The notes under the pieces were generated by a model. It searched no databases. It saw only the letters and a list, made by a program, of their open reading frames with translations, and was not told the origin of the DNA. 64,000 nucleotides of DNA from IMG/VR virus record IMGVR_UViG_3300017963_000189; one strand, 5' to 3'. Shown one piece after another: positions 15,254 through 62,443 of this stretch. The number at the start of each line of letters is the position of its first letter. Position 1 is the first letter of the stretch. The translations under genes were made by a program, and so were the position numbers. The DNA is from a virus (Duplodnaviria > Caudoviricetes).

Positions 15254-16498
15254 TTATTTAACAAGATTCATTCTTTTAATTGAACGATTACTACTTGTAC
15301 TCAATACATAAAAATAAGTTCCACTCGCTAACTCACTACCATCAAAATCTACGGAATAACTACCAACATTCAATCGACCATTAACTAATACTTCAACAAC
15401 CCTACCCTGAATGTCATATACAACTAACTTAACATTGTCGGTATTAGGAATACTAAATTCAATCGTAGTGTTCGGATTAAATGGATTCGGATAGTTTTGA
15501 AAAACATTAAACTCAATAGGAATGTCGCCTAACGTCTCAATAGAATTTGGTTCTTCTACCTTTGGTTCGGTTAACGGACTCTCGTAGGCACCTAAATCAG
15601 GTAACCCAGGACCACATCTCGGATTTCCCTCTATATCTAATTCGGGAGCATAATACATCGTTGAATCAACTAATATGGAATCAACTCCAGCTCCAATAGC
15701 GGATGAATAATCACTTAAATGATAATCGTTGTTTTCAAGTGAAACAAACACTGTGTCGCCCAATGTCTCACCGAATGGGGCATAAATCGAATTTGATATT
15801 GTCGCTTCTCCATCATGTGCGTTTAAAGTAACACTTTTTGTAATAATAGAATTGATAACTGTTATCTTTAATCTACTCTTGTCGGTTTCTTGATAGCCTT
15901 CAATCGGACCGGTAACAGTTGAATTCATAATAATAGAATGAAAAACTTCCTTTGGTTCTTTACGTTCACTCTCACTATAAAGATAAATACCAGTATAAAA
16001 ATCAAGTCCATAAACTATACTATTCGTCATTTCAGTAGAAGTAGATATGAAAGCAACTCCGGCGAAATGATTTGAATTCACAATAAGATTGCGTAATTTA
16101 CAAGAAATGTTTTCATTAAAATTATTAGACATACATAAAACTTGAGCGCCATAGTCTTCAAATCCCCAACTAATTGCTCTACCCCCTTTAATAGTAAATC
16201 CAATTACTTCACTACTATCAGCTTGTACCCATAATGCTTCGCCAGAACCTAAATCACCATCAATAATTGTATTCAAAATATGAAAATATCTGGCGTCCAA
16301 TATAAATTCTGAAGCTAAAACAATACTCTTGTTAAGTATAACATTTGAGTATGTTCCATCACGAACGATTATTGTATCACCATCTGCTACGGAATCAATA
16401 GCCGTTTGAATCGTCGGATAATTATCCGGTACATATACCGTTTCACCAAACGATAACGACACTAAAACTAAACTTAACAAAATAACTAAATACTTCAT
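15254..16498 (-). CDS. secreted right-handed beta-helix protein with T9SS type-A C-terminal sorting domain
   Basis: Sec signal; VPDNYPTIQTAID..ADGDTIIVRDGTY; DYHL...SAIGAG...DIEGNPR...DLGAYE; QNYPNPFNP...SGTYFY...KRMNLVK. Confidence 0.85.
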   Translation of the reverse strand: MKYLVILLSLVLVSLSFGETVYVPDNYPTIQTAIDSVADGDTIIVRDGTYSNVILNKSIVLASEFILDARYFHILNTIIDGDLGSGEALWVQADSSEVIGFTIKGGRAISWGFEDYGAQVLCMSNNFNENISCKLRNLIVNSNHFAGVAFISTSTEMTNSIVYGLDFYTGIYLYSESERKEPKEVFHSIIMNSTVTGPIEGYQETDKSRLKITVINSIITKSVTLNAHDGEATISNSIYAPFGETLGDTVFVSLENNDYHLSDYSSAIGAGVDSILVDSTMYYAPELDIEGNPRCGPGLPDLGAYESPLTEPKVEEPNSIETLGDIPIEFNVFQNYPNPFNPNTTIEFSIPNTDNVKLVVYDIQGRVVEVLVNGRLNVGSYSVDFDGSELASGTYFYVLSTSSNRSIKRMNLVK

Positions 16499-16517
16499 AA
16501 TATAACCCTTTCTTTGT

Positions 16518-16781
16518 TTATTTACTTTCATCTAATATATTATCTATATACCAAATATCTGCTTCGGTAATCGGATCAAATTCTTCCTTGAAATATTTAC
16601 GACCAAATGAATCTTCTATATATCCACTTTCGCCCACATTCCACTGATCACGAAACATCAATCCATCATATTCTTCCTGAGTAATGTATATCCGCATCCA
16701 GAATCGCGGTGGTACATCATACATCGCTTTTACATACCTGTACTTCTGTCCTCGGTATTCCATCTTAAACTCCATATCCAT
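16518..16781 (-). CDS. hypothetical protein
   Basis: 87 aa in operon. Confidence 0.65.
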   Translation of the reverse strand: MDMEFKMEYRGQKYRYVKAMYDVPPRFWMRIYITQEEYDGLMFRDQWNVGESGYIEDSFGRKYFKEEFDPITEADIWYIDNILDESK

Positions 16782-19303: not shown

Positions 19304-19918
19304 TTACCTCTGTAATACTAACTTCTTAGTGTCTCTAAAATACGTTGTCGTCATTTGATAAAAATATACACCACTCGATACCTGTTCACCATTATCATTC
19401 CTACCATCCCACCGTATCTTGTAATGTCCTATATCCTTACTCTCGTCAACTAAAACCCTAACCTTGTTCCCTAACATATCATAAACTACTATCGTTACAC
19501 TCGTGTTCTTTGCTATACTATACTCAATCGTCGTTATGGGATTAAACGGGTTCAGATAATTTTGAGATAAATCATACGATTTATCTCCGTCATTATCCTC
19601 ACCAACAATTCGTGTAACTGTCGTGCTGACTTCATTCGACGGCCCACTCTCTAATACATTTAAAGAATCATCATGATATACTGCTGTGACTTTCCAATAA
19701 TATGTCTCTCCCTCTGTAATCTGGTAATCATAATAAAAGGAATCTAAACCCGCTACATTATCTAAATATACCATCGTTCCTGCTTGTATATCCCTATACA
19801 TCCTATAATCAATAAGTGTATAATTTGGATCATTAGGTGGCGTCCACTCTAAATGTATATATTCCTGAGAAAATAACCCTTGACTTAATAAAAATAAAAA
19901 TATTAATAATTTTCTCAA
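19304..19918 (-). CDS. secreted FN3 protein with T9SS/FlgD-Ig-like C-terminal sorting domain
   Basis: Sec signal; LEWTPP...YRMYR...Y.D..I..G.TYYWKVTAV...ES.PSNEV; QNYLNPFNP...WDGRNDNGEQVSSGVYFY...KKLVLQR. Confidence 0.85.
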   Translation of the reverse strand: MRKLLIFLFLLSQGLFSQEYIHLEWTPPNDPNYTLIDYRMYRDIQAGTMVYLDNVAGLDSFYYDYQITEGETYYWKVTAVYHDDSLNVLESGPSNEVSTTVTRIVGEDNDGDKSYDLSQNYLNPFNPITTIEYSIAKNTSVTIVVYDMLGNKVRVLVDESKDIGHYKIRWDGRNDNGEQVSSGVYFYQMTTTYFRDTKKLVLQR

Positions 19919-32510: not shown

Positions 32511-32797
32511 AATAATAACTCCTTTAATTGTGATAAAGCTAATACCAAATTAAAAAATCCTACAAGAAATAAAAATATTCTTCCTAAGAAGATTCTATAA
32601 ACTTTCATCGACGCAATTAACAACCAAAATGCGATATTTAAACTCGCAATCGTTTCAGCCCATAAAGGTAATGTAAAAATCCAACTTATAAGAATCAAAA
32701 AAACTACTGCCCATCCCCAAAGATTAATTCGTCCTCTAAAGGTTTCATTAGTATTGTAAAGTTCAGTCCAATATGGTTGTGGTTCAAATTTACTCAT
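32507..32797 (-). CDS. membrane protein
   Basis: 3 TM segments. Confidence 0.7.
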   Translation of the reverse strand: MSKFEPQPYWTELYNTNETFRGRINLWGWAVVFLILISWIFTLPLWAETIASLNIAFWLLIASMKVYRIFLGRIFLFLVGFFNLVLALSQLKELLF

Positions 32798-33426
32798 TTT
32801 TTAGCTCCCATATATTTAGCTTTTCCCAATAGTGCTGGTTGATTTCTTGTTGTAGCACCATATCTATTTTTAACTATTTCGCCGTAAATACTTCCATCTT
32901 TACAAGTTACATGAACTACAAAAGACGCCATCGACATTATCGGCATTCCCCAATTCGGATCAGTATTATGTAAATAAAAATATCCCATTTCTGCTACCCT
33001 ATTTTGTTGTAACGTAACCCAAACTCTATAATTATTTTTAATAGCGATCCTTTGAATATCTCTCAAACGATGATAAGTTTTTACTCCACCATCTAACAAA
33101 TAAAGATTATCAATAAAAATGTTTTGTCTTGAATAATTTCTAAGATTTAAGAAAAATTCCAACGTTTCAAAATCTCTTAAAAATGGTTGTTTTTCCAAAT
33201 CTATCAACACACTTTCCAATTCTTTACCACATTTTGCCATTTCAGAAATAAGTTTTGATTTTCCAGATCCAGTCTTACCATAAATAATACCTACTTCTCC
33301 AGGACTAACTATCCATCCAGGTAATCCAACATCTTCTTTTACTTTTGTCGCCCCAAATAAGAAATTTCCGGTCGCTATCATCGCGCCCGAGGCCATAATT
33401 GTCTTGAAAAAATTTCTACGATCCAT
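32794..33426 (-). CDS. DnaB/RecA-fold P-loop protein with twin-arginine-like N-terminus
   Basis: MDRRNFFK + hydrophobic stretch; GKTGSGKS; IFIDNL; TLQQNR; IVKNRYG. Confidence 0.7.
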   Translation of the reverse strand: MDRRNFFKTIMASGAMIATGNFLFGATKVKEDVGLPGWIVSPGEVGIIYGKTGSGKSKLISEMAKCGKELESVLIDLEKQPFLRDFETLEFFLNLRNYSRQNIFIDNLYLLDGGVKTYHRLRDIQRIAIKNNYRVWVTLQQNRVAEMGYFYLHNTDPNWGMPIMSMASFVVHVTCKDGSIYGEIVKNRYGATTRNQPALLGKAKYMGAKK

Positions 33427-34148: not shown

Positions 34149-34557
34149 TTTCTTGTTCCTTTACTTGTACTAAAATGTTTTGTAAAATTTCTTGTACTTG
34201 TCTATCGATCACTTGAGTTGATAAAGACATTCCGTGTGTAAGCACACACTTCCCCTCAGACGAAAATAATGACCATTCCCAAAATTTTCCTTTGAGAAAG
34301 CATATATAAATGCTACTTCCATCTTCAAAAGTAAACTTATAATCTCCGGAATGACTATATCTCATAACATTTATTTTTGGATTTGATTGTAAATGTTTCA
34401 ATACATTTTTTCTCGTCAACCACTTGTGACGTTCAAAAAATATAGATTCCCAAACCATTAGAGCAAATCCCAATGTTGCTGCCATGACATATCCTCCGAG
34501 AATCTGAAATGCTAACTTATATTTGACATCTTCTTTTTTGACACATATGTTTTTCAT
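34132..34557 (-). CDS. membrane-anchored hypothetical protein
   Basis: 1 TM near the N-terminus. Confidence 0.65.
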   Translation of the reverse strand: MKNICVKKEDVKYKLAFQILGGYVMAATLGFALMVWESIFFERHKWLTRKNVLKHLQSNPKINVMRYSHSGDYKFTFEDGSSIYICFLKGKFWEWSLFSSEGKCVLTHGMSLSTQVIDRQVQEILQNILVQVKEQENERNS

Positions 34558-34964
34558 GCACAGTTTTCCTTTGGTTCTATTCCTACACTTGTAATAACAT
34601 AATTATCCACAATAGTAATATTTTCATCTTCGTCTGATTTGGATGTATGACCGAATCCAAATGTAACTATCCGAAAGTTTTCCGCATCCTCAATAATTTT
34701 TTTTAGTTCTTCGCCGCTTGGAGTTCCTATTATTTCAATATCACCTACATAATCGTTATCTACTTCATTGATCTCTTTTACCAGAAACGCCGATTTGTGT
34801 AGTTCAATATCATCATGTTTTGGTTGACCAAGTTGACCAACGGCTTTATCTTCCTCTACTTGTACTTTCACATATTCTTTGAAAGCATTCCGGAGCGCTT
34901 CCTTTGTAAATACCACTCCATTTCCATTAGGCTCGTCAGCTTTGACGTTAAATTTTACTTTCAT
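34554..34964 (-). CDS. T4 gp21-like prohead protease homolog, apparently inactive
   Basis: ADEPNGNG.VF....A.GQLGQP...VGDIEIIGTPSG; ELxHP is QLGQP and SSRG is VTFG. Confidence 0.7.
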   Translation of the reverse strand: MKVKFNVKADEPNGNGVVFTKEALRNAFKEYVKVQVEEDKAVGQLGQPKHDDIELHKSAFLVKEINEVDNDYVGDIEIIGTPSGEELKKIIEDAENFRIVTFGFGHTSKSDEDENITIVDNYVITSVGIEPKENCA

Positions 34965-41251: not shown

Positions 41252-42016
41252 TTATAATAAATCTGGACGGTATTTTTCCATAAGATTACGAGACGCTGCA
41301 ATTATTTCATCTTCAACAAAATAACGATTGTAAACTATTATCTTCTCGATGTAACCGTGAAAATCCATATCATCACGATCAATTTGCCAATTACCAATGA
41401 TTAACGGGTCAGCCACAACAGGCGCGATAGTTAATGGATCAACAGGATTGTATACTGTGTTATCACAATTAACTCCATTGACATAAAATATTGATGAAGA
41501 TTGATGGTATCTCCAGTCAGGAACTGACCAACACGCTACATAAGTTGTATCTACTGTTTGAACCGCATTTGTAGTTCCAACTCTACCACCTGGCTGCCAA
41601 TGATCAGTAGCTATATCATAATTATTCCCATATGAAAAGAAACACATTCCATCATAACCGTCAGATGGATTTTGACTTACTAATGTAGCAAATGTACTAT
41701 GTGTCGATTGTTCAAATACGGCGAATACTGTAATAGGAAATTGAGCTAACCCCGAAAATACACTATTATTTTGTGTTTGAAAATAATCATGAACATGAGC
41801 ATTAGGATAATTAAAAGCTAATGCGGGACGACCCGCAGTATTTATGGAAGCTGATGGAGCATTAGTAGAAATACAATGATTTTGTTGTTGACTTAAATCT
41901 TCCCATGTACCATTAAGTCCTGTATAAACATAATTTTCAGCATCCAAGTGTAAAACACAATTAGGATCGGTTGATTTAAAGTTACTCCACAATGGAGCTC
42001 CACTACGAACGGTCAT
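41252..42016 (-). CDS. LamG/ConA-like jelly-roll protein (array member 6)
   Basis: VLHLDA...WEDLS...LIIG....F.G.I..I.VYNR. Confidence 0.8.
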   Translation of the reverse strand: MTVRSGAPLWSNFKSTDPNCVLHLDAENYVYTGLNGTWEDLSQQQNHCISTNAPSASINTAGRPALAFNYPNAHVHDYFQTQNNSVFSGLAQFPITVFAVFEQSTHSTFATLVSQNPSDGYDGMCFFSYGNNYDIATDHWQPGGRVGTTNAVQTVDTTYVACWSVPDWRYHQSSSIFYVNGVNCDNTVYNPVDPLTIAPVVADPLIIGNWQIDRDDMDFHGYIEKIIVYNRYFVEDEIIAASRNLMEKYRPDLL

Positions 42017-42684
42017 ATTTTATACCTCGATCTAAACGCTTCATGAATTCTTTTAATTTCACCTAATGTAAGTTGTCTATTATATAAAAGAGCTTGAGAT
42101 ACCCAACCCCACGGTTGAGAAAGTGCACTATAATTTCCTATTCTATCATGTGATTGTCCGGTAGCATTTCTGGCTACACTACCAACAAAATCACCATTGA
42201 TATAATAATCTGTTGTGTCGCCATCATAGGCATTAGCACAAATAGAAAACCAAGTCTCAGCATGTGGCGAAATATCATAACCAGACGACAACCAACCGCC
42301 ACCATCATTATCATAAAATCCCAATTCATTTGTTGATGTTTGAATAAGAATCATATGATCCTCAGGAGTTCCGCGAAAAAGAGTTCTCCAAGTACCATGA
42401 TCAGCCATCATTTTTGTGAATCCATAATAACAATAATCGTCGCCTAAAGATGATTGAATAGTAGCTGCTGCAGTTATAATATCACTTCCAGAACATTCTA
42501 TTGTAGGTATTCCATCTTCATATACAAATCCTGTACCTGTTATCGTATGAACGCCAATATTTGTCCTATCTCGTGATACATTATAAATACTCGTACCACT
42601 TCCCGGATAACTCACAGTATTGAATACATCAAGATTGATTTCCAATCCGTTTGTAGGTATTTCGGGATTTCCAAACGCACTCAT
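42013..42684 (-). CDS. LamG-like protein (member 5)
   Basis: GLEINLD...SYPGSG...YING...RIG...LYNRQLT. Confidence 0.8.
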   Translation of the reverse strand: MSAFGNPEIPTNGLEINLDVFNTVSYPGSGTSIYNVSRDRTNIGVHTITGTGFVYEDGIPTIECSGSDIITAAATIQSSLGDDYCYYGFTKMMADHGTWRTLFRGTPEDHMILIQTSTNELGFYDNDGGGWLSSGYDISPHAETWFSICANAYDGDTTDYYINGDFVGSVARNATGQSHDRIGNYSALSQPWGWVSQALLYNRQLTLGEIKRIHEAFRSRYKI

Positions 42685-43403
42685 ACTCCGTACCTCACTC
42701 GTTTGGATTGAAAGTTTTGTAATATTTCAACATCAGTCAATACCCTATCATAAAATGCTATAAATCCAATGTCAACTGGTGCATAATAAGAATCTCTATC
42801 ATATGATATTCTACCTATCGCCATTCCTTCCGAACCGATTGTCGGATCACCTGCACCACCACGTAATACCGTTAAATCATCACCGGTATATTGTCTATCA
42901 TTCACCCAAATAGCACAAGATGTGGTTGTAAAAGCTCCTGAAGTTTTAGTCCAATGAACCAAAACCCAATTATTTAATGGATATTGCACTTCCGTAGAAT
43001 ATGTAGATGTTCCCCACAAATCCATTGTTATTCTATTATTATCACCTGCATTATAATTCCAATTCCCAATACCATCTAATGTAGTATCGTCGCCAAATCC
43101 CCAAAATCCTGCGGATAAAAAATCATCAGTTCTATAAAATGCTCCAAATACAGTAAAATTAGGATCACCTTGTAAAGTTGTAGGAGTTGTTATTCGATTA
43201 GCATAATCACTTGAACCATTGAATTGTATTCTCTGTGTCGCCCCACTTCCTGCTAAACCTGCTCCACCATAATTTAAAAAATCTCCACTTCCTGCTAAAT
43301 TCTTAATGGTAGCTCCACTCGTGTAACTCTTTGGATTTGCTCCATCAACCAATACTAAAAGATTTTCCTTAGCAGTTAAATGTCCGCCTGTGTTAAATGC
43401 CAT
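42681..43403 (-). CDS. LamG-like protein (member 4)
   Basis: LLVLVDGANPKSY...FNGSSDY...IG...FYDRVLT. Confidence 0.8.
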   Translation of the reverse strand: MAFNTGGHLTAKENLLVLVDGANPKSYTSGATIKNLAGSGDFLNYGGAGLAGSGATQRIQFNGSSDYANRITTPTTLQGDPNFTVFGAFYRTDDFLSAGFWGFGDDTTLDGIGNWNYNAGDNNRITMDLWGTSTYSTEVQYPLNNWVLVHWTKTSGAFTTTSCAIWVNDRQYTGDDLTVLRGGAGDPTIGSEGMAIGRISYDRDSYYAPVDIGFIAFYDRVLTDVEILQNFQSKRVRYGV

Positions 43404-43405
43404 AT

Positions 43406-44146
43406 CTAAACTCCAAATCTCGCTCTAAATGAATTGAAATATCGTAAAACTTCATCACCAGAAAGTTCCCGATTGTATATTGAACACATATAATAATTTC
43501 CAGCCAATTCTTGAACACCATCACGACTACCAATAGTAAAATGTGTGCCGACATCTACCATTGTAGCATCCAATGTTCCATATGTAGTAGCATCATAAGT
43601 ATCGGCTACAACACCATCAAGATATGAAGTTATTCCTGTCGCAACGGCTGAACCATCATAAGTTGTACAAGCCATATGAATACCATCATTTATATCAGTT
43701 CTACCTGTCCAAGTTCCACGGCGTCTAACAGCTTTTACACTCCATTGATTTATATCATGTTCACCTACACTACCACCAGGATTTGAAGTTGTCCACAAAT
43801 CCCAACCACGCCAATAACCCGCTCCAGCTTTATCTTGCGCCATTTTCGACATCCACGCACCAGTTTCATCCGATGGAATGTTAGCAACGCAAATTAATGT
43901 CTTTGGATCATCATATTCAAAATCTAATAATGTCGCATCTGAACCGGAAATATACAATTCATTAAAAGTTGTCGTTGTAAAAAATCCTGCAGAATCCCAT
44001 GTCGCACCATTTATAGTAACATTAAGTTCATTACCGGACAAATCATACCATATATTACCACTTCCCGGATAACTTTTAGGATTTCCGGCATCTACATGAA
44101 ATATAAGTCCGTCTCTCGGTATTCTCGGCCCAAATCCAAATGTCAT
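43406..44146 (-). CDS. LamG-like protein (member 3)
   Basis: DGLIFHVDAGNPKSYPGSG.IWYDLSGN...YLDG...IYNRELS...RARFGV. Confidence 0.85.
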   Translation of the reverse strand: MTFGFGPRIPRDGLIFHVDAGNPKSYPGSGNIWYDLSGNELNVTINGATWDSAGFFTTTTFNELYISGSDATLLDFEYDDPKTLICVANIPSDETGAWMSKMAQDKAGAGYWRGWDLWTTSNPGGSVGEHDINQWSVKAVRRRGTWTGRTDINDGIHMACTTYDGSAVATGITSYLDGVVADTYDATTYGTLDATMVDVGTHFTIGSRDGVQELAGNYYMCSIYNRELSGDEVLRYFNSFRARFGV

Positions 44147-44883
44147 ACTCCAAACCTCGCTCTCTCAGCATTAAAATTTTCTTCCATTTCATAAGCTGTT
44201 AATTCTCTATTATACGCTCTAACGATTGACACATAATTACCAGCTTCAAAACAATCATACGGTGGATTGGCTGCATAACCCCTTCCAATTCTTATTTGAT
44301 TTGGAGTTGGTGTAATAGCATCCCCATCAGTTTCTGTGTCTACAGAAAGTGCAGCTACTTGTCCATTAATATAACCAATACCATTTTTAAATCCAGCATC
44401 ACCGGTATCTCTTGTCATTCCAAACTGTATCCATTGTGATTGCGGAAGAAGCATTCTATGATAATCATAAGATGGACGGCAATAAAACCAACTCATATCT
44501 TCATCTGTTTCATACGTCATAGCAATTTCTTGATAATACGAAGCATAATCAGTTCCAAGTTTTTCAAAGAATGTAGTACGTGTAGCAGTGCCACCAAAAT
44601 ATACCCAAAATTCAAGTGTCATTGGCCCTGATAAATCTAAATTAGCTCCATTATCATGAGCAAAACATTTTTGTTCATTATATTGAAAACACTGAACTCC
44701 ATTTAACGTTTCAAATGTTAAATCATTGGTTGCAGCAGCTGCTCCAGATTGATAAAAATCAACATTATTTCCACTCAAATCTTTCCACAATGAACTACCA
44801 CTAACATAACTTTTTGGATTTCCGGCGTCCAAATTAAGAATAAGACTTTCTCTTGAGTTTCCTCTACCTATACTCATTGTCAT
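44143..44883 (-). CDS. LamG-like protein (member 2)
   Basis: LILNLDAGNPKSY..G...WKDLSGN...TLEFWV...YING...YNRELT...RARFGV. Confidence 0.85.
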   Translation of the reverse strand: MTMSIGRGNSRESLILNLDAGNPKSYVSGSSLWKDLSGNNVDFYQSGAAAATNDLTFETLNGVQCFQYNEQKCFAHDNGANLDLSGPMTLEFWVYFGGTATRTTFFEKLGTDYASYYQEIAMTYETDEDMSWFYCRPSYDYHRMLLPQSQWIQFGMTRDTGDAGFKNGIGYINGQVAALSVDTETDGDAITPTPNQIRIGRGYAANPPYDCFEAGNYVSIVRAYNRELTAYEMEENFNAERARFGV

Positions 44884-45641
44884 ACGCCAAACCTCGCTCT
44901 ATTCATATGAAAATTATTCAATACTTGTTCATAAGTTAATACTACATCATATATTCGTACTATCGCTATTGACATATCAAAAATCATATGTGTTGCATAC
45001 CACGGCCCCATATTACCTATCGTAATTCTATTACAATCCCGTACACCACCAGCAACCACAGTAGTATCAATATTATTACCATTCCACCAAACATTCCCCG
45101 TACTACCATCGTGAGTAACAACCCAATGATACCAATTTCCAATAACAGGAACAGCAGTTACGCTATCATATTGATATATTCTATTTGTCGAACTTGTTCC
45201 AGGTCCCTCATTTGTCCAAGCCCGAATTGACCGATCAGGTTCTACATTTAAAGCATGACCATCATACGGATCAGATGACGTTTGATCTTCATTTATATCT
45301 TGCCACAATTCGATCACTCTTGGATTATTACCTAATTGATTATCAGCATCTAACCTAAACCAAGCTTCCATTGTGATTGTGTCATTTGGAAATGATAGTG
45401 ATGCCGTGGCAACCAATCCACTTATATTAGCAACAGTAAACTTAAAACATCCACCGGCGTCAGAAGATAAAACAGGAAAAGTTGTGTCACCATCAGCGGC
45501 ATCCTTAAATGCCGTAGAACGTACTTCACCAATAATATCATCCCAATAAGCACTACCAGTTAAATGACTTTTTTTGTTGCTCGCGTCCGCATAAAAAATC
45601 AATCCATCTGTAATTATGTCGCCTCCAATCTTCATTCCCAT
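44880..45641 (-). CDS. LamG-like protein (member 1)
   Basis: IITDGLIFYADASN.KS...TMEAWF...WYHWVVTHDG...IYDVVLT...RARFGV. Confidence 0.85.
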   Translation of the reverse strand: MGMKIGGDIITDGLIFYADASNKKSHLTGSAYWDDIIGEVRSTAFKDAADGDTTFPVLSSDAGGCFKFTVANISGLVATASLSFPNDTITMEAWFRLDADNQLGNNPRVIELWQDINEDQTSSDPYDGHALNVEPDRSIRAWTNEGPGTSSTNRIYQYDSVTAVPVIGNWYHWVVTHDGSTGNVWWNGNNIDTTVVAGGVRDCNRITIGNMGPWYATHMIFDMSIAIVRIYDVVLTYEQVLNNFHMNRARFGV

Positions 45642-46031
45642 TTATTTTCCCCAAATATTAGCATACTTGTTCTCATATAAATAGTCTCCAAGATGAATAT
45701 CATCAACCCATATTTCTGCTAAGTATCGGCTAAATGAACCTTTCTTTACTGATCGTATAATAACCTCTTTCCCTTCCATCATATCAACCACTTTTTGTTT
45801 TACCCTTAATCCTTCCTCTCGTTCCTCGCCTCGAACCTCTGGCGTGTTGTAATAAAATAACCTAAATCTTATCAATGAATATTGATCAAATCCTAAACTA
45901 ACTAAAATGTCATACGTGTCGCCATCAACTACATATGTCACTAAACCTTTATAATAATACAACTTATCTTCATTCTTTATATTACTTTGTTTCTTAAATG
46001 AAGCCAACGCTTCCTTAATCTTCTCTAACAT
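45642..46031 (-). CDS. SNase (thermonuclease)-like nuclease
   Basis: VVDGDT.D..V.LGF......FRL...NTPE.RG...RYLAEI. Confidence 0.8.
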   Translation of the reverse strand: MLEKIKEALASFKKQSNIKNEDKLYYYKGLVTYVVDGDTYDILVSLGFDQYSLIRFRLFYYNTPEVRGEEREEGLRVKQKVVDMMEGKEVIIRSVKKGSFSRYLAEIWVDDIHLGDYLYENKYANIWGK

Positions 46032-46041
46032 TCTTTCTCTC

Positions 46042-46551
46042 CTACTTAAAAATTATCTCGTCTAATATTTCACCAGTAACTGGATCTGTAATGTACTCTT
46101 TTCTTCTACCCATTAAATTACCACCTGTAAGATATGAACAATTATAACATAACAATGATAAATTTTCTTTCTTATAATTCGTTCTATCGCCATCTTCATA
46201 AGCCAATAATAATGGGGCTTTTCCATCGGTGATCCTCTTTTCGTCGAATCCACATAAACTACACTTTTCTTCGCCAAGTACCATTTCTTGAATGATTTGA
46301 TCCCTTAACCTTGTTGGATTTAATTTCTTCCCATTAAACTTACCCGCTAAAACATCCTTTAATTCACGGCGTACTCCTTGGCGCATCTTCGGAATTCCCC
46401 TTCCAGACGGATTCTTACCACCCTGAATCCATACATCATATAACTTTGCATACTTCTTGAATGTGTTGTATGAAATGTTTAAATAGCGAGCAGCTTCGCG
46501 GAATGAGCGGGTTTTGTCTATCGCGGCTTTGAGTTGTCGTTCTTCAATCAT
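46042..46551 (-). CDS. HTH + degenerate HNH-fold protein (probable DNA-binding regulator)
   Basis: SFREAARYLNISYNTFKK; CSLC...LLLAYEDGDRTN...ENL.LLCYNC lacks the HNH histidines. Confidence 0.7.
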   Translation of the reverse strand: MIEERQLKAAIDKTRSFREAARYLNISYNTFKKYAKLYDVWIQGGKNPSGRGIPKMRQGVRRELKDVLAGKFNGKKLNPTRLRDQIIQEMVLGEEKCSLCGFDEKRITDGKAPLLLAYEDGDRTNYKKENLSLLCYNCSYLTGGNLMGRRKEYITDPVTGEILDEIIFK

Positions 46552-46622
46552 GGTTTATCTCCTTGTTTTTATATAAATATAAGGAAATAAAATTCTTGAT
46601 ATACTTTTGAAGTTGATATACA

Positions 46623-46811
46623 CTACGGCTTGTAACGTCGAGAAGTACACTCAACATTCCATTTCATTGTGGCTTCTTTTATAGTTTCTTCTTTTTCGCC
46701 AGAAAACCCACAATCAACACAATGTATTTGTATTAATGTGGGCTCTCCCATATAAACGTTTGGTATCAATCTTTTACTATTACAATCTGGGCATGGTAGG
46801 CAACCGTCCAT
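46623..46811 (-). CDS. Lar-like zinc-ribbon protein
   Basis: LPCPDC...I.CVDCG......EA..KWN. Confidence 0.65.
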   Translation of the reverse strand: MDGCLPCPDCNSKRLIPNVYMGEPTLIQIHCVDCGFSGEKEETIKEATMKWNVECTSRRYKP

Positions 46812-46857: not shown

Positions 46858-47331
46858 TTAACGTCTTACATATCTTATCATCATACAATATCTCGGTTCA
46901 AATGTTTCAGGATCATAGATCGCTGGAGTAAGTCTAAGAATATAAAAATGAAACATATTCAAATCTAACTCACGAAACTCAGCTTCCATTTCCTCTACAA
47001 TACATTTTAAAGTATATTGTTTCATGTCCTTATTGAATTTAGAATATCGTTCTGAAATATAAGGTTTTAATTTACGAGTTTTAGCAGTAAATAGATCACC
47101 TTGAATATGTTCTGTACAATATTTCATTTGTTTCCAGTTGAACTTTGTCTTATGATTTTTAAGATATTCAAAGAAATCATTTGTTAACATTTCAGATTCT
47201 TCATCTTCTACTGAAACATGACTAATCTCTTTTTCCTTTTCATATACCTTAACTTCTTTTGCATTTGATACTATTACTTTTGTCGCCATTGGTATGGCTA
47301 ACATACTACCTAAAAAATTTCTTCGTCTCAT
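46858..47331 (-). CDS. mini protein with T4 gp23-like capsid segments and RR-signal-like N-terminus
   Basis: MRRRNFLG; TAKTRKLK; TPAIYDPETFEPR...IRY. Confidence 0.65.
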   Translation of the reverse strand: MRRRNFLGSMLAIPMATKVIVSNAKEVKVYEKEKEISHVSVEDEESEMLTNDFFEYLKNHKTKFNWKQMKYCTEHIQGDLFTAKTRKLKPYISERYSKFNKDMKQYTLKCIVEEMEAEFRELDLNMFHFYILRLTPAIYDPETFEPRYCMMIRYVRR

Positions 47332-47334
47332 AAC

Positions 47335-48243
47335 TTACTCCCACGGAATTTCTATTCCTAATCGTTTCGCCTTTTCTTCAAACTCTAATCGTTCTATGTT
47401 GTTTTTTAATGTTCCATCTTCACGTAAATTAAACCAACCATACAAATTCGCTTTTTTAAAGGAATATAAATCTCGTTTAGGTATAAAATCTGGCGATTGT
47501 AATAAATGTATTAACCCAATATCCCGTGCTGTCAATGTAATAGCGTTCAGGCGATAATCCTCAAAGGCGCCCCACGTCAATGGAAATAACTTGGCGACAA
47601 TCTCGTTCCCTATTATCGTAGCATATTCCCTTATCTCTTTCTGAGCATGACTATCCATTCTCAACGATAAAAAATGTAAAAGATTATGCAAATCGATTTT
47701 CCAATACGCCATTGTATATGTGGATAAAGGTAAATCCTTACGGGCTTGTTCCCTGGCAACTCCCTTTTCTAATCGTTGTTTGTATATGTTGTTCGTCAAC
47801 TCGTGTAAATGACTCTCTTGAAATGTTAATCCGGCACCGGTGAGTAGTGGTAAAGTCTCACCACTTCCTTGTTTGTTTATCTTCCCTTGTGTTCGCCAGT
47901 CCTCTGGCTTCGTCATTTGTTTCTCGTCTATCGCCTCAGAATACCTTGTAGAATACTCATTTACACTTGCTGTGCGATGTCTTATCCATTGACGCCAACA
48001 ATCCATTGGTACTTTTACATGGAACTTTAATTCGCATTGCTCAAACGGCGTTGTGTGTCGATGTCTCATAAGGTATCGAATTAAGCCTTCATCTTCATGA
48101 CGTGTCTTTGTTCCCTTTCCATAACTTACTCTGGCTGCTTGCACCACGGCTTCGTCACTACCCATCACATCAACCAAACGAATAAAACCCTTATCTAAAA
48201 CCTTGAACTCTTTCCCTATCAATTCATTTTTTATCTTGTCCAT
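47335..48243 (-). CDS. thyX: flavin-dependent thymidylate synthase
   Basis: AARVSY, H.TPFE, RQWIRHRTASVNEYSTRY, NLLHFLSLR...AQ.EIR. Confidence 0.95.
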   Translation of the reverse strand: MDKIKNELIGKEFKVLDKGFIRLVDVMGSDEAVVQAARVSYGKGTKTRHEDEGLIRYLMRHRHTTPFEQCELKFHVKVPMDCWRQWIRHRTASVNEYSTRYSEAIDEKQMTKPEDWRTQGKINKQGSGETLPLLTGAGLTFQESHLHELTNNIYKQRLEKGVAREQARKDLPLSTYTMAYWKIDLHNLLHFLSLRMDSHAQKEIREYATIIGNEIVAKLFPLTWGAFEDYRLNAITLTARDIGLIHLLQSPDFIPKRDLYSFKKANLYGWFNLREDGTLKNNIERLEFEEKAKRLGIEIPWE

Positions 48244-53678: not shown

Positions 53679-53708
53679 AAATATACGAAATTTTTTACAC
53701 GTTGTCAA
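53679..53708 (-). promoter_or_regulatory. sigma70-type phage promoter P15 (ligA)
   Basis: TTGACA-18bp-TATATT with TTTCG before -10. Confidence 0.7.
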
Positions 53709-61005: not shown

Positions 61006-62052
61006 TCATTTTAAATACCCTTGTTGTATCATTGATGTAAAATATTCATTCCAAGTATGAAATCTAAAATTTGGATTATTTAAATTATATAAATTCTCTT
61101 TACTCCATTGTTCTAATATCTTCCACCATTTACCTTTATCCTTTTCGCCACAAAAACCCAATGGATTATCTTCATCTAATATGTAATGTCTCTTTTTTGG
61201 GTGGCGACGATTGTGTACACGTAACAAATTTCTTACGTGAAACTGTATGTAACCATCACCTAATATCTTCTTAGCAATATATCCAAAACTCGTGTCCTCT
61301 CCACTCATAAGTAACGCGTGCGGTATGTTGACTCCACTCTTTACAATGTCACTCCTAAATACTACACACGAACCATCAAACTTTGGATCGGCTAACGGAA
61401 CAATATCTATATCATGTTCTTTTAAACTTCTCTCATTTATCTCGTTCATATCTTCAATCGACATATAACACTTTTCACTGGCTCGATTGTTTAAATTCCA
61501 TTCATCAGTATCCTGGAACGCTTCTTTCGCAAACTCAGGATGTTCCAATACTGCCCATCCCTTATCCCACATTTTACGATAAGCAAAACTTACTACATAT
61601 CTACTTACATTTACTTGATCCGCATACATAGCAACTCGTTCTAAAACTTGAAATGTTTGTTTTGGAAAAAATGAATCAGTTTCGCCCCACATCAAATAAT
61701 CAACTTCATTCGCATAACGATAATTGAAGTCTCGACGACAACGAGCAATACTATATGGTTCAGGACGATCATGACCATCAGACAAAACATAATCATTTAC
61801 TTTTATTCCGGTATTCGTTAATATTTCGATTTGTTTCATATATTCGGTAACCAAATAACCGTCACTCGGTAACGTTTTGTGATCTATCGTTTCAAAATCT
61901 TGACACATACTATAATCAATATGTAAGGTAATATTCTCCGGATTCTCCACATCCAATAACATATTCTCAATCCCTTTTACCCAATCTTTCATCATTTCTA
62001 TTTCATAGAACATAATCAAACAATGGATAGCATAAGTTTTACTTAGTTTCAT
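61006..62052 (-). CDS. GT-A-like glycosyltransferase
   Basis: RRDFN....DYLMWGETD...GED...H.R.HP.KR; cluster context. Confidence 0.6.
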   Translation of the reverse strand: MKLSKTYAIHCLIMFYEIEMMKDWVKGIENMLLDVENPENITLHIDYSMCQDFETIDHKTLPSDGYLVTEYMKQIEILTNTGIKVNDYVLSDGHDRPEPYSIARCRRDFNYRYANEVDYLMWGETDSFFPKQTFQVLERVAMYADQVNVSRYVVSFAYRKMWDKGWAVLEHPEFAKEAFQDTDEWNLNNRASEKCYMSIEDMNEINERSLKEHDIDIVPLADPKFDGSCVVFRSDIVKSGVNIPHALLMSGEDTSFGYIAKKILGDGYIQFHVRNLLRVHNRRHPKKRHYILDEDNPLGFCGEKDKGKWWKILEQWSKENLYNLNNPNFRFHTWNEYFTSMIQQGYLK

Positions 62053-62443
62053 TTTCACCATACCTTTCTATATAATACTCACCAATCAACGCACACAATT
62101 CAAATTCGGCGTCCAACATACCCATTTCCTTGAACGCTTTAAATGTGTCGCCGTGTTTTTCAATGACTTCAAAATATATTTCTTTCATCTTTTCATAATC
62201 AGCTTTTAATTCTTTTCCTTCATCGTATATTCGTCTTACAAGCGGCATTACCATTCCATTAAAATATTCATCACTGTTTTCATCACCAATTACGGCAAGC
62301 GCAGCTTCCTCTAAATATTCAGCTACTTTTTGTTTCCAATCCGTATCTAACCTTTTCTTTCGTAATTCCTCACTGGTTGGATATGGAGTAGTCCTTTTAT
62401 CCAACAATCCCGTCATTTCCCACTTTTTTATTAAATCACTCAT
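62039..62443 (-). CDS. protein resembling the N-terminus of T4-type major capsid protein
   Basis: LIKKWEMTGLLD...K.KVAEYLEE.A...F...VMPLVRRIY. Confidence 0.6.
   Translation of the reverse strand: MSDLIKKWEMTGLLDKRTTPYPTSEELRKKRLDTDWKQKVAEYLEEAALAVIGDENSDEYFNGMVMPLVRRIYDEGKELKADYEKMKEIYFEVIEKHGDTFKAFKEMGMLDAEFELCALIGEYYIERYGENETK

Follow-up and report, generated by a model that had tools for sequence, protein, structure and literature searches.

Why would a phage keep a trimmed piece of a major capsid protein outside its head module, behind a segment that resembles an export signal? This question is raised by a gene in a 64,000-nucleotide stretch of DNA (hereafter the window) from a virus of the Caudoviricetes, IMG/VR record IMGVR_UViG_3300017963_000189. 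The source virus record measures 161 kb at 35% GC, and the carrier of the gene is a marine jumbo phage. At positions 46858-47331, the list of open reading frames (ORFs) and its translation give an ATG-started frame of 157 codons encoding a 157-aa protein, designated here P0001. The whole coding sequence, including the stop codon, occupies 46858..47331 on the minus strand, where all long ORFs of the window and all features described below are located. A first-pass annotation had described this ORF as a miniature major-capsid fusion with a twin-arginine-like leader, and all of the motifs that it quoted are present in the translation, namely MRRRNFLGSMLAIPMA at residues 1-16 (the RRRNFLG leader), TAKTRKLK at 82-89, EEMEAEF at 113-119 and TPAIYDPETFEPRYCMMIRY at 135-154. 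Only the spacing of the last motif needed correction, as it had been placed about 20 aa after EEMEAEF and actually starts 15 aa after it. As described below, the gene is intact and conserved and belongs to a previously unnamed phage protein family, the core of which is predicted to be one half of a T4-type capsid subunit.

An exhaustive HMMER search of 1.8 billion representatives recovered 13 relatives of P0001, all metagenomic, 130-187 aa in length and with E-values from 1e-27 to 5e-4. Together with P0001 they align end to end (alignment A1, 14 sequences). The 14 family clusters, which share 25-45% identity, have open frames of similar length, conserved starts and Shine-Dalgarno (SD) sites. 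The conserved blocks consist of an N-terminal MKRRNFLxSL..P...K followed by FFxYLK, W..M..P, AKTRKLK, IVxELExE and TPxIYDPxxFxPxxGIxIRYA. Thus, the P0001 family is a conserved one and not a one-off.

The origin of the family became apparent when these blocks were compared with gp23, the major capsid protein (MCP) of T4-type phages. The PHROGs model phrog_138 ('major head protein') was matched by 4 of the 14 members, with a best E-value of 1.1e-5, and the Pfam family Gp23 (PF07068; profile length 376, gathering cut-off 24.4 bits) by two. Residues 100-143 of the relative P0011 matched Gp23 profile positions 146-189 at 27 bits, a match of 44 residues only, and residues 155-178 of P0010 matched positions 324-346. 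These matches imply that two conserved blocks of the family correspond to two colinear but distant parts of gp23. Scans of IMG/VR seeded with the family alignment returned full-length gp23-type MCPs only, of 566-570 aa. Using P0015, a full-length gp23-type MCP of 570 aa that carries PF07068, as the BLASTP reference, we found that residues 75-131 of P0001 align to MCP residues 327-385 (E 0.017) and residues 132-157 to MCP residues 527-552 (50% identity, E 2e-7). Profile-profile alignment with hhalign of the family against 119 full MCPs placed residues 81-119 on MCP 333-380 (E 1e-4) and residues 132-156 on MCP 527-551 (E 3e-11, probability 97%). The two motifs are therefore about 190 residues apart in the full MCP, in keeping with the first-pass statement that they lie well over 100 aa apart in gp23, and the alignment to gp23 homologues that had been proposed as a check of the capsid idea gave colinear matches with both BLASTP and hhalign. 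Moreover, the C-terminal segment of the relative P0003 is 65% identical to annotated major capsid proteins of Flavobacterium phages, for example that of vB_FspM_immuto.

Since these matches are colinear, they imply that approximately 145 MCP residues have been replaced by 12 in P0001. The junction lies at residues 120-131 (46939..46974) and stands in place of MCP residues ~381-526, the A domain, for which P0001 has no counterpart; positions 190-323 of the Pfam Gp23 profile are likewise unmatched. In addition, the N-terminal ~326 residues of the MCP are replaced by 74 unrelated ones, and its last ~18 residues are absent. The earlier description of an internally deleted capsid P-domain piece was thus correct in that the P-domain strands and spine helix are kept and the A domain is gone, and incomplete in that both MCP ends are missing as well. 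On the strength of these alignments, the likeness of P0001 to gp23 cannot be put down to chance, and we conclude with high confidence that P0001 derives from a T4-type capsid protein.

We then examined the predicted structure. From the single sequence, AlphaFold2 gave a predicted local distance difference test (pLDDT) score of 41 and an unusable model. When the 14-sequence alignment was supplied, the mean pLDDT rose to 83.5, with values above 90 for residues 41-157 and disorder over residues 1-40, so that the proposed AlphaFold check gave a confident core. The model begins with an N-terminal helix at residues 41-59 (47155..47211), which contains the FFxYLK motif and takes part when the model is aligned structurally to T4 gp24 and to further capsid proteins. 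It is followed by strands at 65-68, 73-76, 79-82 and 84-92, a helix at 101-121 and strands at 126-134 and 146-156. Residues 65-92 (47056..47139) form a short hairpin and a long strand bearing AKTRKLK; this is the first gp23-derived piece (MCP ~327-344), identified from BLASTP, hhalign, the weak phrog_138 match and secondary structure. The second helix, IVEEMEAEF included, is the spine-helix equivalent at residues 101-121 (46969..47031), corresponding to MCP ~355-380 on the basis of hhalign, the P0011 match above the Gp23 gathering cut-off and the model. Residues 126-156 (46864..46956), reading TPAIYDPETFEPR...IRY, form the two C-terminal P-domain strands and the second gp23-derived piece (MCP 527-552), as indicated by hhalign, by BLASTP and by the same segment of P0003.

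Comparison of the model with 48,161 PDB chains using VIA-align yielded a list of 50 entries of which approximately 45 were HK97-fold capsid proteins or encapsulins, with Z scores of 3.8-6.5 over 89-115 aligned residues. The HK97-fold similarity on which the mini-capsid idea was said to stand or fall was therefore found. Among the matches were PhiKZ (Z 6.5) and T4 gp24 (Z 6.0, 108 residues, root-mean-square deviation 3.4); also listed were S6, the SaPIbov5 procapsid, lambda, phi29, HK97 and several encapsulins, with aligned ranges covering nearly the whole target chain. A shape search of the ESM Atlas returned a 100% Gp23 cluster as its top match (template modelling (TM) score 0.48 by query, 114 residues), and the top three were all capsid clusters (TM 0.48-0.52). 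In the model, the core presents a P-domain sheet on a spine helix, the arrangement that defines the HK97-fold superfamily, and it is best described as the P domain and spine helix half of the HK97 fold minus the A domain. Co-folding of the mini core with a stand-in full MCP scored 0.00, which is evidence neither way.

In the BFVD database, the mini core showed weak Foldseek likeness (E 1e-3 to 1e-1, TM 0.3-0.6) to uncharacterised proteins of ~80-140 aa from the cultured T4-like or jumbo phages phiM9, PM2, phiR1-RT, Merlin, JSE and Atu_ph07. These small proteins might be further free-standing P-domain-like proteins.

A protein that looks like the product of a deletion could be a decaying, functionless remnant of a duplicated or recombined capsid gene, its leader resembling a signal by chance. 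The lack of hits in curated libraries is in keeping with that view. Queried alone, P0001 matched nothing significantly in Pfam, PHROGs, NCBIfam or the PDB sequences, the sole hint from curated libraries being phrog_138 at E 0.17, and PF07068 did not match it at E<=1. The word-indexed protein search returned P0001 itself as the single match, and no capsid protein came up among PDB sequences with either phmmer or hmmsearch. In tblastn searches of GenBank phages with P0001, P0014 and P0003, no family member was found in any cultured phage, only MCP C-termini. A feature search of the ESM Atlas gave leads that were all below threshold, and a stand-in MCP used as query returned nothing beyond its own very abundant clade. 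A weak match to a P450 (TamI, E 0.31) was judged to be due to chance because Pfam p450 does not match P0001. One relative, P0008, has moreover lost the leader and part of the C-terminal motif, as a decaying gene might. However, the preserved frames, starts and SD sites of 14 divergent clusters, the compact fold predicted at high confidence, the survival of the leader's Arg-Arg pair through synonymous changes and the occurrence of the identical sequence in several samples all speak against decay, and we consider a functionless remnant extremely improbable. The identical P0001 protein was called on five metagenome contigs, one of 309 kb and four others. The DNA datasets containing the stretch are sediment and seawater metagenomes, and no RNA dataset was listed. 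P0001 is almost certainly a functional gene.

The surroundings of the gene bear on whether its product could act in the head. P0001 starts 3 nt past the TAA stop (47335-47337) of thyX, which encodes a flavin-dependent thymidylate synthase (47335..48243; Pfam Thy1, E 3e-52) and lies co-directionally and directly upstream. A Shine-Dalgarno sequence, GGAG (47338..47341), is located 6 nt upstream of the P0001 ATG within the 3' end of thyX, and in every relative examined an SD-like motif lies ahead of the corresponding start. The terminator scan found no terminator-like site between thyX and P0001, and the two are most likely translated together. A NAD-dependent DNA ligase is encoded upstream of thyX in the window. 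Head-module genes are not adjacent; around P0001 lie thyX, a Lar-like gene and two further genes, one for an HNH endonuclease and one for a nuclease. In two relatives thyX again lies upstream, with one to three small genes between, and one of these loci also retains the downstream Lar-like and HNH genes. A leaderless member in another relative is situated between a 5'-3' exonuclease and a DnaB helicase. The setting is an early, nucleotide-metabolism and non-structural one. Just upstream of the ligase, at 53680-53708, there is a near-consensus sigma-70-type promoter (TTGACA, 17 nt spacer, TATATT; 11/12), in a window where promoter-like sites are rarer than in shuffled sequence; it may head a transcription unit containing thyX and the mini capsid gene.

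These observations can be set against the idea that P0001 is a head-associated accessory protein whose ~24 N-terminal residues are a propeptide or tag cut by the prohead protease. Such a role would suit the capsid-derived fold, and small or aliphatic residues precede a Glu near positions 24-27 in most members. However, no single cleavage motif precedes this Glu, the leader is hydrophobic and carries RRxFL, and the gene sits among early, non-structural genes. P0001 also falls short of a capsid protein proper, as it has neither a complete HK97 fold with an A domain, nor an N-terminal propeptide or N-arm, nor a head-module position beside scaffold and protease. Since it has no A domain, it could not occupy a capsomer position. 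We therefore regard a head-associated function as quite improbable. Scans of the 161-kb record gave no PF07068 or phrog_138 match.

What, then, is the N-terminal segment for? The putative leader comprises residues 1-24 (47260..47331; pLDDT <55) and, in alignment A1 and the motif and hydropathy table, reads as MRRR, RRNFLG, a hydrophobic stretch with Pro14, Lys18 and VIVSNA, the last containing a possible S-N-A signal-peptidase site. It is followed by an acidic, lysine-rich linker at residues 25-40 (47212..47259) of low pLDDT, whose length and sequence differ between members; over residues 25-44 the mean pairwise identity is 14%. By the same measure residues 1-18 are the best conserved segment of the protein at 46%, above the core at 32%. 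A leader is present in approximately 12 of the 14 members. RRNFL, at residues 3-7 of P0001, recurs as RRxFL in 9 of 14, and one more carries an R-K variant (KRKDFL). Members encode the Arg-Arg pair with different synonymous codons, and each leader ATG has its own SD. As in twin-arginine translocation (Tat) signals, the hydropathy is moderate, with a best 15-residue value of 1.5-2.1. In the family profile, the first 19 residues aligned to the NapA signal with negligible score.

Within the 161-kb record, only two ORFs start with a leader of this kind, P0001 and a 210-aa P-loop protein encoded at 32794-33426, ~14 kb from the P0001 gene. The latter has the Walker A motif GKTGSGKS and opens with MDRRNFFK, behind which comes a long hydrophobic stretch. 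The leaders of its three metagenomic relatives are textbook Tat-type ones, in which MKRR(N/D)FLK precedes 15-17 hydrophobic residues and a site reading LLA or LGA. The body of the protein is weakly DnaB-helicase-like (phrog_19, E 7e-5 in one relative), and several small membrane-protein ORFs flank its gene. Searches of the 161-kb phage record revealed neither TatA nor TatC, whereas Tat genes were detected in a Bacteroides control genome.

The window also offers clues to the host. Sorting domains of the type IX secretion system (T9SS) end two ORFs, at 15254-16531 and 19304-19918 (Por_Secre_tail, E 1.7e-10 and 5.8e-6; FlgD_ig). T9SS-tagged phage genes suggest a diderm host of the FCB (Fibrobacteres, Chlorobi, Bacteroidetes) or Bacteroidota type and show that export routes of the host are used by the phage. 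The closest cultured MCP for the C-terminal motif belongs to a Flavobacterium phage. The host is likely a diderm of Bacteroidota type.

Building on what is directly supported, namely a real gene, its gp23 homology, an HK97-like fold minus the A domain, a conserved leader and a non-structural context, we infer export, cleavage and a role in the envelope. In this explanation, P0001 is a T4-type MCP (gp23, HK97 fold) trimmed to its peripheral half. It keeps one helix and a short hairpin, then the long strand with AKTRKLK, the spine helix and both C-terminal strands of the P domain. It has neither the A domain nor the insertion domain, and the propeptide region at the N-terminus and the C-terminal strand have also been lost. 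Ahead of this core would stand a floppy acidic linker and, before the linker, a signal peptide of Tat type composed of RRNFLG, moderately hydrophobic residues, a Lys and a small-residue site. The host Tat pathway could then carry the folded domain over the inner membrane of a diderm, probably Bacteroidota-type host. In the envelope it might serve as a reused module for binding, one that helps to exclude other phages or to remodel the envelope, for instance, and it would have no part in head assembly.

Several observations weigh against this reading, some concerning the capsid origin and others concerning export. P0001 itself has no significant match to a capsid model, so that the homology is carried by family profiles and relatives. 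The structural half of the first-pass check that relied on Foldseek found nothing significant in the PDB, T4 gp23 chains appearing with only 30 columns at E 1.8; this null result is expected, because an alignment has to skip a whole domain. The VIA-align Z scores are moderate, 6.5 at most, yet the uniformity with which this model retrieved capsid proteins is unlike a chance outcome. As for the leader, only 11-12 hydrophobic residues lie ahead of the conserved Lys18, where Tat signals have about 12-20, and the putative cleavage sites differ among members, that of P0001 being S-N-A at 22-24. The Pfam TAT_signal model PF10518 reached 14 bits at best (cut-off 22.7), for P0014 only and not for P0001, and TIGR01409 gave E 0.15 in one member and stayed below cut-off in all 14. 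Both models are short and miss many true Tat signals. P0008 and P0009 have no leader, with in-frame stops just upstream of the start, and the Arg pair is absent from P0011 and P0013; the core can thus exist without Tat targeting. Finally, the periplasm has no ATP for an ATPase-type domain, and the ATPase-type passenger behind the second leader makes a plain periplasmic function doubtful and suggests that the leader may serve another purpose. Because the Tat scores fall below their cut-offs and two members are leaderless, export is plausible but unproven. We judge the chances that P0001 is exported or membrane-targeted through its leader to be about evenly balanced, and we give the same even standing to the fuller proposal of a Tat-exported or Tat-targeted folded domain reused as an envelope binding module.

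Other shrunken derivatives of head genes are present in the window. At 62039-62443, a 134-aa ORF matches with residues 4-75 the N-terminal ~25-88 of seven full gp23-type MCPs (33-35% identity, E 1e-5 to 1e-6). It is leaderless, continues into an unrelated helical tail and is located among glycosyltransferase-like genes; no relatives were found in IMG/VR beyond a low-complexity match. At 34554-34964, a 136-aa ORF encodes a fragment of a T4 gp21-type prohead protease (Pfam Peptidase_S77, E 5e-9; phrog_207, E 2e-12), which covers only profile positions ~50-170, has no leader and is remote from any head module.

The existence of these two leaderless proteins (134-aa gp23-like and 136-aa Peptidase_S77) is in line with a different possibility, in which P0001 is a capsid mimic that is cytoplasmic or membrane-tethered, the leader being at most a tether to the membrane or translocon. 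It would use the gp23 surfaces that it has kept to bind a usual partner of the intact capsid protein. Its partner could be a capsid-recognising host immune sensor, for which it would act as a decoy or inhibitor, or the capsid subunits of a competing phage or of the same phage, where it would interfere with assembly or control its timing. The segments retained in P0001 are the most conserved gp23 motifs; leaderless members exist, one of them within a replication module; the gene context is of early type at every locus seen; and the passenger of the other Tat-type leader is an ATPase-type domain, for which a place outside the cytoplasm makes little sense. However, a leader that is found in most of the family and is its best conserved part is hard to explain without a targeting role. 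In addition, our literature searches returned no description of capsid-fragment decoys, P-domain-only or truncated capsid paralogues or Tat-tagged capsid pieces. We consider a mimic of this kind unlikely, although it is the main rival of the envelope reading. In a broader conjecture, Tat-type leaders on shrunken core phage proteins (the capsid piece and the DnaB-like piece) may represent a general and so far undescribed phage strategy. The mimics would bind host factors able to recognise such folds, for example immune sensors of the core phage proteome, and the leader would make each complex hitchhike as far as the Tat translocon or across it. The sensor would thereby be taken out of the cytoplasm or immobilised beyond it. 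We view this as highly speculative and very unlikely to hold in full.

Directly downstream of the P0001 gene, the region 45642-46811 encodes three proteins, one of which is a Lar-like zinc-ribbon protein of 62 aa, while the others are endonucleases, one HNH/NUMOD-type (169 aa) and one SNase-like (129 aa). In one relative (L016), synteny extends to the Lar-like gene and to a gene of the same 169-aa size. Further along, at 41252-45641, there are six tandem genes, abutting or overlapping, whose products measure 223-254 aa. Some match Laminin_G_3 (concanavalin-like lectin), and the three that were read share a ...(E/F/N)RARFGV tail. The arrangement resembles an array of diversifying paralogues.

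Building shells is regarded as the dedicated role of HK97-fold capsid proteins. In the P0001 family, the P domain and spine helix survive as an independent, conserved phage protein, apparently with a new address label. If the export reading for P0001 is true, a virus recycles part of its own shell as a protein of the envelope, and the family would represent a class of phage-encoded factors, acting in the envelope or against competitors, that are left as ORFans by current annotation pipelines. The second Tat-tagged core-protein fragment in the same phage may point to a recurrent design principle.

The P0001 family can be placed among several known systems. With gp23 and gp24 (PF07068, HK97 fold, PDB 1YUE; for example the vB_FspM_immuto MCP) it shares the homologous AKTRKLK strand, the spine helix and the TPxxYDPxxFxPRxGxxxRY strands, and its predicted core superposes on gp24 with a Z score of 6.0 over 108 residues. 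The differences are considerable, as the MCP has ~520-570 residues compared with 157 in P0001, and P0001 is without the A domain, insertion domain, propeptide and C-terminal strand, has a signal-like leader and an early-gene location, and could not form the usual hexamers or pentamers. Tat signals have the consensus S/T-R-R-x-F-L-K and are found on bacterial periplasmic proteins such as NapA. P0001 resembles them in having RRNFLG at its extreme N-terminus, with a stretch of moderate hydrophobicity, a basic residue and a site of small residues behind it; it differs in that fewer hydrophobic residues than usual precede the Lys, the hidden Markov model (HMM) scores are under the cut-offs, and the passenger is a capsid fragment and not a cofactor enzyme. 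Ccm of SaPIbov5 (PDB 7RWZ), which was among the top VIA-align matches of the P0001 model, is likewise an extra HK97-fold protein encoded away from the main capsid gene and with a role beyond that of a standard shell subunit. Ccm has the full HK97 fold and co-assembles into shells, whereas P0001 has no A domain, has a leader and sits in the phage's own early region. Only one case of free-standing, drastically truncated HK97-fold proteins in a non-capsid context has been described, that of the Family 4 'A-domain encapsulins' (DUF1884, PF08967; PDB 2PK8) of ~100 aa (Andreas and Giessen 2021; PMC8346489). P0001 is likewise free-standing and drastically truncated. Theirs is a cellular setting, in enzyme operons of archaea and a few Bacteroidetes and with no export signals, whereas the P0001 family is phage-encoded and carries a leader. 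Moreover, the Family 4 proteins consist of the A domain only and the P0001 family of all but the A domain, so that the two have kept complementary halves of the same fold.

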